Positions 4,378-30,632 of a stretch of DNA of 64,000 nt are shown piece by piece. Positions within the stretch are counted from its first letter, which is position 1. Every line of letters begins with the position of its first letter. Where the stretch lies: assembly GCA_965213705.1 (NCBI GenBank), contig OZ243913.1:1568001-1632000 (forward strand), read 5' to 3'. The stretch comes from Trueperaceae bacterium (GTDB lineage Bacteria; Deinococcota; Deinococci; Deinococcales; Trueperaceae). The notes beneath the pieces were generated by a model, which was not told where the DNA came from, made no database searches, and worked only from the letters and a program-made list of their open reading frames with translations. Both the position numbers and the translations under genes were made by a program.

Positions 4378-4406
4378 TTGACAAACCCGGTGATAAGGCC
4401 TATACT
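4378..4406 (+). promoter_or_regulatory. sigma70 promoter TTGACA-N17-TATACT
   Basis: TTGACA 4378-4383, 17-nt spacer, TATACT 4401-4406. Confidence 0.85.
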
Positions 4407-4410
4407 GAAC

Positions 4411-4431
4411 ATACCTTAGTTTTTAAGGTAT
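4411..4431. promoter_or_regulatory. Palindromic operator candidate ATACCTTA-N5-TAAGGTAT
   Basis: Perfect 8-bp inverted repeat over the expected +1 of the 4378 promoter. Confidence 0.6.
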
Positions 4432-4478
4432 AACCGTGAAAAGAGCAGTTCAATCTCCGAGGAGGATGTACCGAACCC

Positions 4479-4970
4479 ATGACCATGACGCTTTCCACAC
4501 CTTTGCTAGAGGCCGCCACACGACCCATCCTCAGCCGGGGCCGGACACGCCGGTCCGTTTTGCAGGCGCACACGCGCGTTGGAGCTACCTTGGACGCTCA
4601 CCCCGGCAACCATCCCGCTCGAGTGTTTCGGGACCTGACCAGCAGTTTTCAGCAAGACGCCGCCGGCGAGCGCGTCGACGTGTTGGCCGCCGAACTCGCG
4701 TCCTGTGTGGCCGCCGCGCGCGGCTCGCTGTGCTTGGGGCTGGTTCACAAAGAAACCGTGCCCAAACTGTACGGCCTCGTCTTTTTGCTCGACGGCTACG
4801 GCCTGGTGCTGCGCCAGCGCTACCGCGAGCAAGGCGACGGCGTGTTCGTGTTTTTAGACCGTAAGGGCGACGCCGCGAGCGAGTTCGCGGGCAGCGTCGT
4901 TGTTGAGCGCGTTGTTGAGCGCGGCGTGCCTGAGCGCTTTGCCGACGTGGCGCTGCCGTGGGCGGCGTAG
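4479..4970 (+). CDS. Hypothetical protein, first gene of SSAP-primase operon
   Basis: 163-aa ORF with GAGGAGG upstream; no recognisable domain. Confidence 0.7.
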   Translation: MTMTLSTPLLEAATRPILSRGRTRRSVLQAHTRVGATLDAHPGNHPARVFRDLTSSFQQDAAGERVDVLAAELASCVAAARGSLCLGLVHKETVPKLYGLVFLLDGYGLVLRQRYREQGDGVFVFLDRKGDAASEFAGSVVVERVVERGVPERFADVALPWAA

Positions 4971-4976
4971 GGGAGG

Positions 4977-5780
4977 TTGACGATGGTTAACACCGAAACT
5001 CAGGTCGACTGGCCCGCGTTGCTGAACGCCCTCGCCGAGCCTTTTCCGCAAGAAGCCGTGTCGTGGCGCGCGGGCGCGTTGTCGCGCGACAAAAAGCGCG
5101 CGCAAGCCTTGCCCTACGCCGAGCCGCGCGTCTACGAAGACCGCTTGAACACGGTCTGCCCCGGCGACTGGAGCGTGCGGTTCGTGCCCTGGGGCGAGAA
5201 CCGCATCATCTGCGAACTCACCGTCCACGGCGTCACCCGCAGCTCGACCGGCGAAGAGAACGACGGCGGTTTCGCGCCCGGCACCGCCGCCGAGGCGCAA
5301 GCCTTCAAGCGCGCCTGCAGCAAGTTCGGGTTGGGCCGCTACCTGTACGACATCGGCATCGACTGGATTGACTACGACGAAGACAAACGTCGTCTCGTCA
5401 AGACGCCGAACCTGCCGGATAGGTTTTTGCCCGCGAAAAAGGTTGCGGTCAAGACTGGGACGGAAGCTAGAGCCGAGACCAGGATGAGCGCCAAACCCGC
5501 GCCGACACCCCTGCCCAAGCCTGTCCAAACCCTGCCGGCCAAACCGCTCGAGACCCCCCAAGCCCCGCTTCTCACCCCCGACCGGGCCGAGGCGATGGCG
5601 AAAGAGTTGGAAAAACTCGGTTTCGCCCGCGGTGTAGCGGGTGCGGCCAAGCCTAACGAACAGCTCAAACTCGCTACCTCGGTGCTGGGCCATCCGGTGC
5701 GCGCGTTCACCCAACTCACCGAGGCCGAAGCCTTGGAAGTCTGGGCCTCGGCCAAGCGCCTCAGCAAAAGCGTCGCGTGA
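4977..5780 (+). CDS. Rad52/Rad22-family single-strand annealing protein (DdrA/Sak-like)
   Basis: L.EPFP..V.WR, Y...R...DRLN.VCP.DW, LTV.GVTR...GE and AFKRAC.KFGLGRYLY motifs; Pro-rich linker; C-terminal LTEAEA module; GGGAGG RBS. Confidence 0.9.
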   Translation: MTMVNTETQVDWPALLNALAEPFPQEAVSWRAGALSRDKKRAQALPYAEPRVYEDRLNTVCPGDWSVRFVPWGENRIICELTVHGVTRSSTGEENDGGFAPGTAAEAQAFKRACSKFGLGRYLYDIGIDWIDYDEDKRRLVKTPNLPDRFLPAKKVAVKTGTEARAETRMSAKPAPTPLPKPVQTLPAKPLETPQAPLLTPDRAEAMAKELEKLGFARGVAGAAKPNEQLKLATSVLGHPVRAFTQLTEAEALEVWASAKRLSKSVA

Positions 5781-5938
5781 AGCCCGCGCCCGCCGGGGCG
5801 GTGTACGTGTGCCAGGGCTGCAAGCGGCGCGCGGAGGTGTGCGTTCCCGCCAAGGTTACCTGCAGCCGTTGCGGTCGCCCCATGAAGGTGGAAGATGAAA
5901 ACGGACATTCCCGCGCTCAAGGCGAACCGCGACTTTAG
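5777..5938 (+). CDS. Zn-ribbon microprotein (53 aa, not in ORF track)
   Basis: GTG overlaps upstream TGA (GTGA); YVCQGC...VTCSRCGRPM has two CxxC motifs. Confidence 0.6.
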   Translation: MKPAPAGAVYVCQGCKRRAEVCVPAKVTCSRCGRPMKVEDENGHSRAQGEPRL

Positions 5939-6845
5939 AACAATAGTTGCGACAACGCACCCTATCGGCAGGGACGGCAAGATTTGCTGTCCCTTCCACG
6001 ACGACGCACACCCGAGCTGCCACATCTACCCCGACGGCTACAAGTGTTTCGCCTGCGGCGCGCACGGCGACCACCTGACTTGGTTGGAAGAGGTGCAAGG
6101 GCTGTCGGTCGCGGCGGCCATCGCTTGTTTGGCGGGCGGTGGCGGCTCGCTGCCGCGCCGCCCGCCCCCACGCCGCGCCAAGGCGACAGTGAATTACAGC
6201 CCGATAAGCGCGGCTGCTTACAGCAGTTACGCTCACCGGTTGCGGGTCACGAACCGTTTGCCAAAAGCCCTCGAGCACCGCGGCCTCAACTTAGAGCAGG
6301 CCCTTCAACTCGGCGTCGCCGCGCTCGGTGACGACGCGCTGCTGCCCATCGCCGGGCCGTCGGGCGACATCTTGGCGCTCAAACGTCGTTTTTACGCCTC
6401 CCAGGACGGCTTGCGCTACGCCTACACGACCGCCGGCCACGGCAGCCCGGCCTGGTGCTCGCCCAACTTTCTGAGTTGCGAGCACGTGCTGGTGGTCGAG
6501 GGCGAACTCAACGGAATCGTGAGCTATTCGGTCCTCAAGGAGGTGGGAGCCGAGGTAGCGGTGATGGGTGTGGCGGGCGTGTACGGCGGTTTGCACGAGG
6601 CGGCGCTGCGCGGCAAACAGGTTTACGTGTGGGCCGACCGGGACGGACCCGGCACGCGCGCCAGAAAACGCTGGCAGTCCAAAGCGCGGCGCGCGGGCTG
6701 CGCGGTCGCCAAGGCGCTTCCCTCGACAAGCGCCGACGCCTGCGAGTTGGCCGGGCAAGAAGGGCGGCTCTACTTGGCCTCGTGGTTGTTGGAGGCGATG
6801 AACAAGCGCCTCAAAACCCGCACCCCACAAAAGGAGTTGGCATGA
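5895..6845 (+). CDS. DnaG-like primase: CHC2 zinc finger plus Toprim domain
   Basis: CPFHDDAHPSC..YKCFACG; Toprim VLVVEGE and VWADRDGPG (DxD). Confidence 0.85.
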   Translation: MKTDIPALKANRDFRTIVATTHPIGRDGKICCPFHDDAHPSCHIYPDGYKCFACGAHGDHLTWLEEVQGLSVAAAIACLAGGGGSLPRRPPPRRAKATVNYSPISAAAYSSYAHRLRVTNRLPKALEHRGLNLEQALQLGVAALGDDALLPIAGPSGDILALKRRFYASQDGLRYAYTTAGHGSPAWCSPNFLSCEHVLVVEGELNGIVSYSVLKEVGAEVAVMGVAGVYGGLHEAALRGKQVYVWADRDGPGTRARKRWQSKARRAGCAVAKALPSTSADACELAGQEGRLYLASWLLEAMNKRLKTRTPQKELA

Positions 6846-7090
6846 TTGGCGTAACGACAAGCGAATGTCCGCGTTGCCAGGGCGAAGGTGTCTTGCTGTT
6901 TGCGGGGCGTCCCGGCGCGTTCTCGAGCTTAGAAGACGGTTTTGTACCCTCGGAAGCCTTTCGCGCCTGCCCCGACTGCTCGGGCGAAGGCGAGTTGGAG
7001 GTCTGCGCGGAGTGCCTGCAACCGTTGACCATCCAGCGCGGGCGCGAAGTCTGCGGCTGCGCCGAGCTTGCTTGGTTGGACGCGGCCTGA
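6842..7090 (+). CDS. DnaJ-type CxxCxGxG zinc-finger microprotein (82 aa)
   Basis: AAGGAG RBS, ATGA overlap with primase stop; CPRCQGEG, CPDCSGEG, CAEC, CGC. Confidence 0.7.
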   Translation: MIGVTTSECPRCQGEGVLLFAGRPGAFSSLEDGFVPSEAFRACPDCSGEGELEVCAECLQPLTIQRGREVCGCAELAWLDAA

Positions 7091-7255
7091 CGTTCAGACT
7101 GATACCTTTTCCGTTTAATTATGAGGTATAAGGTCGCTCGAGCCGGCGCTGTCAAACAAAGGGTTGCAACCACTCATTAGCTGAGAGAAGTGTGTGAAAG
7201 GCGAGACCTCAGGCGAGTTGCGGAGATTCTCAGGCCTCGAGCCGGCCCCTACCGG

Positions 7256-10803: not shown

Positions 10804-11352
10804 ATGGGTCTGCTGGTCGCTTTGAGTTTTACAGCCGAAGACAGTGCAGCCAAAGCTGTTTTGTCAGAACTCTCGAGTTTGGCCGAACCGTACGAGTACA
10901 AGTTGTATTTGGGAATTCCACCCAAAGAGCAACACATGTGGGACATGACCGACGGACTCCAACAGCTTGCCGACCTCAGAGGCTGGAATACAATCATCTT
11001 GGTCTATACCTATAACGACCAGGGTTTACCCTTCGCTCGGAATATCAACGAGGAATTTAACGAGTTTCGTTTGGGCAGGGGAGGACCGCCTGTTTTCTTG
11101 AACTTTTTAGAAGAGGCGAACCAAATCTTGGCTGACCGGTTGAAAAGCTATACAGTCTCTTTCTCCGACGAGTGGCCGAAAGACACGGATATTAGGCTCT
11201 ACGAAGGTTCCCTCACCGAACTTCTGACGCTTTTAAAAGGACCGGGCGGTTGGATGATTGAGGTTTTCAACCCTGCCCAACAGATATACCGCATAAAGGA
11301 TGAGTGGCCGTTGGTTTTCACTGTTCACGCAACACCTCAAGATTCGCCCTGA
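10804..11352 (+). CDS. Hypothetical protein (lower GC)
   Basis: 182-aa ORF with upstream TAAACT and GAGG; atypical codon usage. Confidence 0.65.
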   Translation: MGLLVALSFTAEDSAAKAVLSELSSLAEPYEYKLYLGIPPKEQHMWDMTDGLQQLADLRGWNTIILVYTYNDQGLPFARNINEEFNEFRLGRGGPPVFLNFLEEANQILADRLKSYTVSFSDEWPKDTDIRLYEGSLTELLTLLKGPGGWMIEVFNPAQQIYRIKDEWPLVFTVHATPQDSP

Positions 11353-27767: not shown

Positions 27768-30632
27768 TCAAGCGACGTCCCGCACTTCCAGACGCTTGGT
27801 GATTTCGGGAATCCTGCGCAAAAACGAACCCGTCGAGGAGGTCGGGTGGGCGGCCAGGTTTTCCGGCGTGCCTTCCGCGACGACGGTCCCGCCGCGCACG
27901 CCGCCGTCCGGGCCTAAGTCGACAACCCAGTCGGCGGTCTTAATCACGTCCATGTTGTGTTCAATCACGACGAGCGTGTTACCCGCGTCGACCAGTCGGT
28001 GCAGCACGCCCAAAAGTTTGCGGGTGTCCTCGAAGTGCAGGCCGGTGGTGGGCTCGTCCAGGATGTAGAGCGTCTTGCCGGTCGAACGCTTGCCGAGTTC
28101 CGACGCGAGCTTGACGCGCTGCGCCTCGCCGCCGGACAGCGTCGGGCTCGACTGGCCGATCTTGATGTAACCGAGGCCCACGTCCTGCATGAGTTGCAGT
28201 TTGCGCGCGACGTTGGGGATGTTCTCGAAAAAGTCTAAGCCCTCGTCGACCGTCATGTCGAGCACGTCGGCAATCGAGCGCCCACGAATTTTGACCTCCA
28301 AAGTTTCCCGGTTGTACCGTTTGCCCTTACAGACCTCGCAAGGAACGTAAATGTCGGGCAGAAAGTACATCTCGACCTTGACCGTGCCGTCGCCCTTGCA
28401 GGCTTCGCAGCGGCCCCCCTTGACGTTGAACGAGAAGCGGCCCGCCTTGTAGCCGCGCTTGCGCGACTCGGGCGCGCGGGTGAACAGGTCGCGGATTTCG
28501 GTGAAGATGCCCGTGTAGGTCGCCGGGTTGCTGCGCGGCGTGCGCCCGATGGGACTCTGGTCGATTTCGATGACCTTGTCGATGTTCTCGGTCCCGTCGA
28601 TGCGGCTGTGTGTGCCGGGCGTTTCCTTGGCACGGTAGAGGTCTTTGGCTAAGGACGCGTGCAGTATGCGGTGGACGAGCGTCGACTTGCCCGAGCCCGA
28701 GGCCCCGGTGACGCAAGTCAGGGTGCCCAGCGGCAGCTCCACGGTGACGTTTTTTAAGTTGTGTTCCCGCGCCCCGACGATTTTGAGGCGCTTGCCGTTG
28801 CCGTCGCGGCGCTCTTCGGGCACGTCGATCTTTTTGTCGCCGCGCAGGTAGGCGGCGGTGAGCGAGTTCGGGTCTTTGAGCAACTCTTTCGGAGCTGCCG
28901 CCGCCACGACGCTGCCACCGTGAACGCCCGCGCCCGGCCCCAGGTCGACGATGTAGTCCGCGGCGCGCATCGTCTCCTCGTCGTGCTCGACCACGATAAG
29001 CGTGTTGCCCAAGTCGCGCAAGCTCAGGAGGGTTTTGAGCAAGCGCGTATTGTCGCGCGGGTGCAGCCCGATACTGGGCTCGTCGAGCACGTAGAGGACA
29101 CCGGTGAGTCCCGAACCCACCTGCGTCGCCAGACGGATGCGCTGCGCCTCGCCGCCGGAGAGCGTGTTGGCGCTGCGGTCGAGGGTGAGGTAGTCCAGTC
29201 CGACGTTTTCTAAAAACCCCAGGCGCGCATTGACCTCCCTGGTAATCGGCGTGGCGATGCTGTTGCCGGGTTCGGGGAGGTCGAGACTGCTGAAAAAGTC
29301 TCGAGCCTCGAGCACCGTCAGTCCCGACACCTGCGCGATGTTGCGGTCGGCGACCGTGACGGCTAGGACCTCGGGCTTGTAGCGCGTGCCGCCGCACGCG
29401 GGGCAGGGTTGCAGGCCCATGAAAGCTTCCAACTTTTCCCGCGCGAACTCGGTGTTCGCTTCGGCCAGGCGGCGCTCTAAGTTGGGAATCACCCCCTCGA
29501 AGTCGGCCTTGAAGCGCATCGTTTCCTTGCCGTCACGGGTGTAGACGACCTCGATGGGTTTGTCGGAGCCGTAGAGGATGACTTGTTTCGCCGGTTCGGG
29601 CAAGTCTTGCCACGGCGTCGACAGCTCGAAACCGAAGTGCTCGGCTACCGCGCGCAAGCGGTCCCAGTAAAAAATCTTGTTGCCGTCGCTGCGCCCGCCC
29701 GTCCAGGGCGCTATCGCGCCGCGGCTGATGGAGAGCGTCTCGTCGGGAATGACGAGGGCGGGGTCGAACTCTTGTTTGAAACCCAGGCCCGTGCAACTCG
29801 GGCAGGCACCGTAGGGGCTGTTGAAGGAGAAACTTCTGGGCTCGAGTTCCTCCAACGCCGTGCCGTGCTCCGGGCAAGCGAAGCGCTCGCTGAACAGTTC
29901 GTCGACGTTTTTTTCGGGCACGAACACACGCATCAGGCCTTCGCCCTTTTGCAGGGAGAGTTCCACAGACTCGGCCATGCGGGCGCGGTCTCCCTCGTCG
30001 ACTTTGATGCGGTCGACGACCACGTCGATGTCGTGTTTTTCGAAGCGTTCCAAGTTGCTCGCCAGGGCTTCCTCGAGCGTCATCACGACGCCGTCGACCC
30101 GCACGCGCGCGAAGCCCTCTTTTTTGAGGTCGGCGAAAAGTTTTTTGTACTCGCCCTTGCGCCCGCGCACCACCGGGGCCAAGAGCAGCGCTTTTTCATG
30201 GTTAAAGCGCGCCACCATCTTGTCGACAATTTCGCTCGCCGACTGCTTTTCAACGCGCCGTCCGCACACCGGACAGTGGGGGATGCCGGCGCGAGCGAAG
30301 AGCAGCCGCAAGTAGTCGTGAATCTCGGTCACGGTGCCGACCGTCGAGCGCGGGTTGTGCGAGGTCGTTTTCTGGTCGATGCTGATGGCCGGGCTCAGGC
30401 CTTCGATGGCGTCGACGTCGGGCTTGTCCATCAGTCCTAAAAATTGCCGCGCGTAGGCCGACAGGCTTTCGACGTAGCGGCGCTGGCCCTCGGCGTAAAT
30501 CGTGTCGAAAGCGAGCGTCGACTTGCCCGAGCCGGACACGCCGGTAAAGACGATAAAGGCGTTTCTGGGGAGTTCAATACTGACGTCTTTGAGGTTGTGT
30601 TCGCGTGCGCCGCGAACCACTAGGTTTTGCAA
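27768..30632 (-). CDS. uvrA: Excinuclease ABC subunit A
   Basis: GAREHNLK, two Walker A motifs, two LSGGEAQR motifs, Zn fingers. Confidence 0.98.
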   Translation of the reverse strand: MQNLVVRGAREHNLKDVSIELPRNAFIVFTGVSGSGKSTLAFDTIYAEGQRRYVESLSAYARQFLGLMDKPDVDAIEGLSPAISIDQKTTSHNPRSTVGTVTEIHDYLRLLFARAGIPHCPVCGRRVEKQSASEIVDKMVARFNHEKALLLAPVVRGRKGEYKKLFADLKKEGFARVRVDGVVMTLEEALASNLERFEKHDIDVVVDRIKVDEGDRARMAESVELSLQKGEGLMRVFVPEKNVDELFSERFACPEHGTALEELEPRSFSFNSPYGACPSCTGLGFKQEFDPALVIPDETLSISRGAIAPWTGGRSDGNKIFYWDRLRAVAEHFGFELSTPWQDLPEPAKQVILYGSDKPIEVVYTRDGKETMRFKADFEGVIPNLERRLAEANTEFAREKLEAFMGLQPCPACGGTRYKPEVLAVTVADRNIAQVSGLTVLEARDFFSSLDLPEPGNSIATPITREVNARLGFLENVGLDYLTLDRSANTLSGGEAQRIRLATQVGSGLTGVLYVLDEPSIGLHPRDNTRLLKTLLSLRDLGNTLIVVEHDEETMRAADYIVDLGPGAGVHGGSVVAAAAPKELLKDPNSLTAAYLRGDKKIDVPEERRDGNGKRLKIVGAREHNLKNVTVELPLGTLTCVTGASGSGKSTLVHRILHASLAKDLYRAKETPGTHSRIDGTENIDKVIEIDQSPIGRTPRSNPATYTGIFTEIRDLFTRAPESRKRGYKAGRFSFNVKGGRCEACKGDGTVKVEMYFLPDIYVPCEVCKGKRYNRETLEVKIRGRSIADVLDMTVDEGLDFFENIPNVARKLQLMQDVGLGYIKIGQSSPTLSGGEAQRVKLASELGKRSTGKTLYILDEPTTGLHFEDTRKLLGVLHRLVDAGNTLVVIEHNMDVIKTADWVVDLGPDGGVRGGTVVAEGTPENLAAHPTSSTGSFLRRIPEITKRLEVRDVA

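Follow-up and report, generated by a model that had tools for sequence, protein, structure and literature searches.

Does a compact cluster of five genes in the Trueperaceae, encoding a Rad52-family single-strand annealing protein (SSAP) and a DnaG-type primase, work for its host in DNA repair, or is it what is left of a prophage? The cluster lies at positions 4378 to 7090 of a 64,000-nucleotide stretch, hereafter the window, from a Trueperaceae bacterium (assembly GCA_965213705.1, contig OZ243913.1, positions 1,568,001 to 1,632,000). An earlier interpretation of the letters alone, here called the sequence-only reading, had proposed either a domesticated, inducible module or the stripped early region of a prophage or satellite. 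Comparison of the source genome (G000, 98% complete) with its nearest relative (G001) and with further genomes (labels with G, L, C and g denote sampled genomes, loci, contigs and genera) points to a Rad52-type cluster that has likely been domesticated and put under SOS control, and to which a captured primase is an accessory.

All five open reading frames (ORFs) are encoded on the + strand: orf1 (4590 to 4970, with a longer frame possible from 4479), orf2 (4977 or 4983 to 5780), orf3 (5777 to 5938), orf4 (5895 to 6845) and orf5 (6842 to 7090). They abut or overlap as the sequence-only reading had described, with GTGA at 5777 and ATGA at 6842, and orf3 shares 44 nt with the primase gene. The near-consensus promoter was recovered as well. 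This sigma70-type element (TTGACA-N17-TATACT, 4378 to 4406, + strand) agrees with the consensus at 11 of 12 positions and was found once, against 0.2 expected in shuffled sequences. A palindrome, TACCTTA-GTTTT-TAAGGTA at 4412 to 4430 (no strand), had been missed. It begins 5 nt beyond the -10 hexamer, lies over the transcription start and is likely a LexA (SOS) box.

Allowing up to two mismatches, TACCTTA-N5-TAAGGTA occurs at 14 sites in G000, 13 of which are intergenic even though called genes cover 79% of the genome; the reversed pattern does not occur. The sites precede recA, uvrA, both lexA genes, and genes for an SRAP protein, a Sak4-like ATPase, a GemA-like protein and a Panacea antitoxin. 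Its recurrence upstream of recA, uvrA and the two lexA genes makes the palindrome the likely LexA operator of the operon. A site count by weight matrix is circular, the matrix being built from the sites themselves, and fixed patterns with reversed controls were used instead. By this measure the box is present in 110 of 128 Trueperaceae genomes (reversed control 0-1 per genome) and in none of five genomes from other families. It stands ahead of the operon in all 20 genomes that carry one, at most 1.5 kb from the SSAP gene in 19, and within 1.5 kb of none of 15 SSAP copies outside the operon. The promoter hexamer pair and its spacing to the box are kept in 15/15 aligned genomes and are degenerate in G033 and G066.

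LexA itself was found in 121 of the 128 family genomes. Both LexA-family proteins of G000 match PF01726 and PF00717 and retain the Ala-Gly cleavage site and the Ser and Lys residues, with scores just below the TIGR00498 cut-off (103.4 and 107.6 vs 110.95). The recognition helix covaries with the site. For LexAs with the helix HY[VM]SL, the box lies no more than 110 nt upstream of the gene in 19 of 20 cases; in genus g30 (helix TYVTL; L217-L223) a TACGGTA half-site takes the place of the box in six of seven; and the LexA of G023 (helix DYTTL; L226) has the operator TACCCAA-N5-TTGGGTA. This pattern lends indirect support to LexA binding. In 11 of the 20 genomes lexA is the first gene of the operon.

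Further boxed genes of the source genome include those at C1 positions 2005065-2005535, 1679079-1679603, 697849-698496 and 2604825-2605202. Besides the GemA-like protein and the Panacea antitoxin, the boxed set holds a 215-aa protein, a 126-aa protein that weakly matches PriL and several small proteins. The boxed Sak4-like AAA_24 protein (L205, G000:C1:1943810-1944811) adds another candidate annealase of phage type to this regulon. A second uvrA within the window (27771-30632) has an upstream region that is not among the box sites, unlike the uvrA at 691,812 of G000. In L296 (G134), G008:C39, G018:C9 and G135:C288, lexA is followed by a divergent orf1, in G134 also by orf3, with no SSAP gene in the stretch seen; these cassettes are reduced or variant forms.

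The operon, defined as orf1 adjoining the SSAP gene, was found in 20 of 128 Trueperaceae genomes and in nine of 36 genera; the unpublished genome G033 counts among both the 20 carriers and the 11 lexA-led ones. Homologues with source names all come from Trueperaceae or Deinococcota. At least one common flanking gene (cyth/sixA/nhaP or ccdA/tlpA/hemC/metK) accompanies the operon in 16 of the 20 genomes, G066 carries it elsewhere, and three loci are too short for the flanks to be read. The cluster is thus not confined to intact prophages or integrative and conjugative elements. In a GyrA tree of 30 genomes, which omits G008 owing to its split gene, the operon is present in basal and crown lineages. 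The 20 operon SSAPs group with one off-site copy (G151) in a single branch (97/95) whose genus-level subclades agree with those of the GyrA tree, and keeping genus g24 together was not rejected (approximately unbiased test, p=0.17).

Neither is the cluster strain-specific or decaying. Ratios of nonsynonymous to synonymous substitution rates (dN/dS; Nei-Gojobori, own script) between G000 and G001 are 0.13 for the orf1 core, 0.13 for orf2, 0.34 for orf3, 0.23 for orf4 and 0.16 for orf5. Six flanking genes give 0.06-0.27, and the dS of the operon is similar to that of the flanks. In three other close genome pairs the operon shows dN/dS of 0.01-0.16; the pair G000-G021 is near saturation. The values for orf3 are 0.014-0.055 in three pairs, compared with 0.34 in G000-G001, where orf3 overlaps the primase gene. 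The operon is old, intact, conserved and under purifying selection. Since it is found across the family at a common chromosomal site, is under purifying selection and carries a likely LexA operator at its transcription start, we favor the first option of the sequence-only reading, a domesticated and inducible module.

The product of orf2 (4983 to 5780, + strand; 265 aa) belongs to the Rad52/Rad22 family of single-stranded DNA (ssDNA)-binding proteins, scoring 25.7 bits against PF04098 (cut-off 20.3) and E 3e-20 against phrog_1097. The SSAP core motifs are invariant across 96 sequences, and the label annealase is a prediction from family membership. No match was found among PDB sequences, phage and plasmid collections yielded only distant SSAPs (<60% identity), and a viral-contig collection held no relative. 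A PF04098 scan of the genome missed both known copies and is uninformative on absence.

The sequence-only reading had called orf2 DdrA-like. The family assignment stands: HHalign aligns the orf2 core with the DdrA-type core of Deinococcus proteins at 99.9% probability, and identity is about 40%. Orthology does not follow. The SSAP had matches in all 27 Deinococcus-genus genomes of the sample. Nine were fetched, seven of them with a site resembling the radiation/desiccation response motif (RDRM), and Deinococcus proteins were taken as DdrA on the basis of a single copy and such an upstream motif. In the tree, the nine Deinococcus sequences form their own branch (99/97), separate from 34 clade-A sequences (100/100), the two branches and a third sequence meeting at an open fork. 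The clade-specific C-terminal domain of orf2 compares with that of DdrA at an HHalign probability of 0.5%, and no RDRM-like site lies within 250 nt of orf2. No IrrE-type protease was detected in G000, the sole PF06114 match being an ArdC peptidase; no search was aimed at DdrO. DdrB was likewise not found in this genome. Because clade, C-terminal domain and operator all differ, orf2 is not a DdrA orthologue, though it may work like DdrA. The two systems have in common a Rad52-family core, a chromosomal location and, for the operon likely, a part in the damage response (PMC515370). They differ in that DdrA is under RDRM and DdrO/IrrE control instead of a likely LexA box, and orf2 shares its operon with orf1, the zinc proteins and, in some genomes, a primase.

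A second, divergent Rad52-family gene without a box lies at G000:C1:681555-682262 (L213). Paralogues of this type are near-universal in the family, with weak matches in most genomes, and lie near gyrA in several; their C-terminal domain is common to Thermaceae homologues (99.6%), and the KR and GRYLY core motifs are lost. The genome also has a separate full-length dnaG (641-aa frame at 1,134,098). In G036, two identical SSAP matches (L116, L117), the second without orf1, both lie beside ccdA and tlpA, either a duplication or an assembly artefact.

The accessory primase, encoded by orf4 (5895 to 6845, + strand), combines a CHC2 zinc domain with an RNA-polymerase/Toprim domain, as predicted by PF01807 and fold. 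PF01807 was matched over its cut-off (E 2e-11) and Toprim below cut-off only. The structural model (pLDDT, predicted local distance difference test, 92.6) has its best Foldseek match in the Aquifex primase 2au3 (E 3e-11) and also matches the T7 gp4 primase fragment 1nui and 5w33. Zinc ligands C32, C51 and C54 are present in 92 of 92 sequences and H35 in 91; E202, D248, K163 and R165 are invariant, and D250 and D281 are kept in 91 of 92. The assignment as a CHC2-Toprim primase is thereby upheld. All 92 sequences, element copies included, have EGELN in place of the EGxxD of DnaG. With 316 aa, the protein does not extend beyond the Toprim region and lacks a C-terminal helicase-binding domain. We conclude that orf4 encodes an intact DnaG-type enzyme, distinct from the replicative cellular DnaG, with predicted priming activity.

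That the SSAP-primase pair forms the essence of the module, as first proposed, is not supported by its distribution: only three of 20 operons (G000, G001 and G021) contain the primase. In the primase tree, the operon-type sequences fall into a single branch (100/98) whose sister group is the primases of mobile elements. Two size-matched metagenomic SSAP-primase pairs (P0141, P0142) fall among the element primases, probably by chance. The viral-contig collection held one distant primase, and metagenome contigs gave 40 loci, mostly zinc-domain-only matches, two of which were inspected. Compared with DnaG-type primases (2au3, 1nui) and with those of satellite-like integrase-primase-AAA_25/DUF3987 elements, whose primases are its sister clade, orf4 has the same CHC2 and Toprim domains with Glu and DxD. 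It differs in lacking a helicase-binding domain and an adjoining helicase gene, in an Asp-to-Asn change in the Toprim helix, and in being a second primase, behind a likely SOS box, beside the replicative dnaG.

The remaining three genes encode small proteins. For orf1 (4590 to 4970, + strand; 126 aa), the start is probably TTG 4590, because homologues begin there and dN/dS is 0.53 over codons 1-43 of the longer frame vs 0.13 for the remainder. Searches of Pfam, PHROGs, NCBIfam, the ESM Atlas and PDB sequences gave no match for it. Its model (pLDDT 87.6) predicts a small alpha/beta domain; Foldseek on pdb and viral structures gave nothing at E<=0.001, with weak R3H-domain rows as a lead at most, and VIA-align gave a best Z of 6.3, to helical hairpins only and with no clear fold match. 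The family (57 relatives) is present in 29 of 128 Trueperaceae genomes and all 20 operons. In an order-wide sample it was absent from 94 genomes of three other families, with one marginal match among 54 genomes of a fourth, and it represents a Trueperaceae-specific family.

The two other small proteins had been read as zinc-finger microproteins. Both are indeed Cys-rich, orf3 (5777 to 5938, + strand; 53 aa) with two CxxC motifs of a predicted zinc ribbon and orf5 (6842 to 7090, + strand; 82 aa) with DnaJ/anti-TRAP-like CxxCxGxG repeats, and all their zinc-ribbon matches, for orf5 to PF00684 and PF15777, are sub-cut-off. The ESM Atlas matches of orf5 stayed under 0.9 and belonged to unnamed viral clusters. 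Seventeen operons contain orf3 and 19 contain orf5. Both orf1 and orf5 end in -AA; such Ala-Ala C-termini occur in 19/19 orf5 proteins, 79/120 orf2 homologues and 30/57 orf1 homologues, vs 92 of 3946 called genes. The -AA/-VA ends of the operon proteins may serve as a ClpXP degron. The small proteins are constant companions of the SSAP that come from the same element module, probably in an accessory role. A cluster at G000:C1:2202969-2204802 (L214) joins an orf1 paralogue, a zinc-finger ORF and ardC and has neither box nor SSAP gene; it lies near toxin-antitoxin genes and a split integrase-like frame and is likely an element remnant of the donor type.

Where did these parts come from? SSAPs outside the operon occur in ardC-orf1-orf5-SSAP modules (G012, G107, G116, L171; variants in G072 and G133), and integrase, DUF3987, ParB or single-stranded-DNA-binding protein (SSB) genes lie near the two such modules scanned against Pfam. 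Among 16 off-operon primase matches in the family, the gene after the primase encodes AAA_25 (6) or DUF3987 (2) in all eight tested, and three of these eight loci also have a confirmed integrase domain; of the remaining matches, four are similar by sequence and others are prophage-like, broken or unclear. With trees rooted on distant homologues from elements or phages to infer the direction of transfer, the parts of the operon likely derive from mobile elements. A published account describes capture of Rad52-, RecT- and ERF-family genes from phages and their sporadic occurrence among phage-related genes (PMC8987985). In the history that we propose, an ardC-orf1-orf5-SSAP module of integrative elements would have been fixed once, early in the family, losing ardC and gaining the box; a primase from integrase-primase-helicase elements would have been captured once and retained in a minority of lineages; and in one clade lexA would have come to lie between promoter and orf1. 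The prophage or satellite option of the sequence-only reading thus holds for ancestry and fails for the present state of the cluster, which is under selection, has a common site and occurs in nine genera.

As described before, the flanking genes are host genes on the - strand, encoding a Na+/H+ exchanger on one side and a CcdA/DsbD membrane protein on the other. Integrase, capsid or phage-helicase Pfam domains (E<=1e-5) matched none of the 53 other called genes of the window (own gene caller; eight without any family), which covers only 4.4 kb upstream of the operon. The longest flank-to-flank direct repeat is 8 nt, so there is no att repeat, and the earlier statement to this effect was correct. 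At the 15-18 kb loci of relatives, no integrase, att, helicase or structural genes were recognised by tblastn and gene listing, with a Pfam scan of only some loci. The GC content of the operon is 65.8% vs 60.9% genome-wide, and CTCGAG occurs at 1.45/kb vs 2.09/kb, the four sites being too few to separate the two densities. An ATACCT...AGGTAT inverted repeat at 7102-7129, 3' of orf5, was considered as an element end and rejected, as it is kept in neither G001 nor G021. Two low-GC orphan genes without a Pfam match, inserted near the operon (2458-2907 and 10804-11352), were not found at this site in the same two genomes.

Inferring mechanism from gene content, conservation, purifying selection, the operator and its recurrence, and the families and folds of SSAP and primase, we consider it probable that the cluster is a domesticated, LexA-repressed and damage-inducible operon for end protection by the SSAP, probable annealing, optional helicase-free priming and rapid proteolysis. 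RecA-triggered self-cleavage of LexA would release the strong promoter. The Rad52-type protein would then coat and shield 3' single-stranded ends or gaps and probably pair complementary strands without RecA. In operons that have it, the primase would synthesize RNA primers on long ssDNA off the replisome and without a helicase, allowing fill-in. After repair, the -AA/-VA C-termini, if they are ClpXP degrons, would have the proteins cleared. A more far-reaching version, in which an SOS-controlled, helicase-independent DnaG-type primase acts on SSAP-coated ssDNA in fork restart or gap filling, a Rad52-plus-repriming pathway made from element parts, appears doubtful at present.

Several observations weigh against this interpretation. 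All 92 primases carry Asn206 at the position of a metal-binding Asp in DnaG; this Asp, the second acidic residue of EGxxD, is also missing from some element primases. DnaG-type primases normally require a helicase. Seventeen of 20 operons lack the primase, and in the GyrA tree its carrier genera g1 and g21 do not group as sisters, which requires several losses or a transfer. The group of 12 operon-type primases was partly picked from an earlier tree; three of them are verified in an operon and seven more are linked to an SSAP only via matching metagenomic contig sizes. On the regulatory side, one g30 genome retains the common half-site despite its altered LexA helix, the box of G018 has three mismatches, and the branch of 11 lexA-led genomes is weakly supported (88/74). 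No operon was detected in 108 of the 128 family genomes (many of them incomplete metagenome-assembled genomes), so it must be dispensable. Bet-Exo and Sak-Ssb systems pair the SSAP with an exonuclease or an SSB; the operon encodes neither. Lastly, the DdrA study reports that DdrA (DR0423) binds 3' ends and that annealing was not detected in vitro (PMC515370).

The element origin of every part invites another explanation, namely that the operon is damage-inducible and acts in conflict with mobile DNA rather than in chromosome repair. SOS would then signal that a prophage or element is being induced, and the SSAP, the small proteins and the primase would disturb the single-stranded intermediates of the invader or compete for them. 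The box at the Panacea-domain antitoxin, GemA-like and Sak4-like genes, the patchy presence (20/128) and the absence of repair homologues for orf1, orf3 and orf5 would fit such a role. We nevertheless regard it as unlikely, as the fixed site and low dN/dS do not suggest fast turnover, no defence-system genes are among the neighbours, and lexA heads the operon in 11 of 20 genomes.

The cluster could also be a helper held by the host, which supplies SSAP and primase in trans to elements excising and replicating upon SOS induction and is retained for their useful cargo. The orf1 paralogue-zinc finger-ardC cluster at 2,202,969 of G000 has no SSAP gene, related integrase-primase-helicase elements exist in many operon genomes, and one SSAP copy (G151) lies off the operon site. 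However, the elements encode their own primase and helicase, and selection on the operon equals that on its housekeeping flanks, which renders this role quite improbable.

LexA binding of the palindrome is predicted from sequence, and a different regulator, or a signal other than DNA damage, might act there. The near-universal presence of LexA (121/128) does not discriminate by itself, and several boxed genes are without assigned function. The box at lexA, recA and uvrA, the site changes that accompany changes of the LexA helix, and the Ala-Gly, Ser and Lys residues kept by both LexA-family proteins of G000 make this very unlikely. A decaying prophage or satellite early region without host function, which the phage- and element-type gene families and tight overlaps might suggest, is largely refuted and extremely improbable. 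The cluster occurs in nine genera, has a common site and retains its catalytic residues, promoter and operator; its dN/dS is far below 1 at a dS similar to that of the flanks, and neither an att repeat nor an integrase was found.

A literature search, largely confined to papers outside subscription, found no published description of the operon or the box. Phage Sak/Erf-type SSAPs and the Bet-Exo systems of elements likewise comprise an SSAP of mobile origin, with RecA-independent repair or replication as their tested role (PMC5499656, PMC7498323). The operon described here differs from them in being fixed in the chromosome and inherited across genera, in having a host operator, and in the absence of integrase, exonuclease and SSB genes. 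The lexA-headed translesion-polymerase damage operon of Deinococcota shares lexA at its head; here the cargo consists of SSAP, small proteins and primase, and the box also marks recA and uvrA.

The Trueperaceae are the sister group of Deinococcus, and neither an IrrE-type protease nor DdrB was detected in the source genome. For this family the likely SOS-controlled, domesticated operon is a candidate substitute, in which a Rad52-type protein was recruited separately and likely placed under a classical SOS switch. Because both donor pools persist in the same genomes, the steps of domestication are traceable: loss of ardC and of helicase partners, gain of the operator, and lexA moving in. The accessory primase makes it testable whether a DnaG-type primase serves repair without the replicative helicase; if true, a repair-dedicated DnaG-type primase would be doing in these bacteria the job that PrimPol does in eukaryotes.

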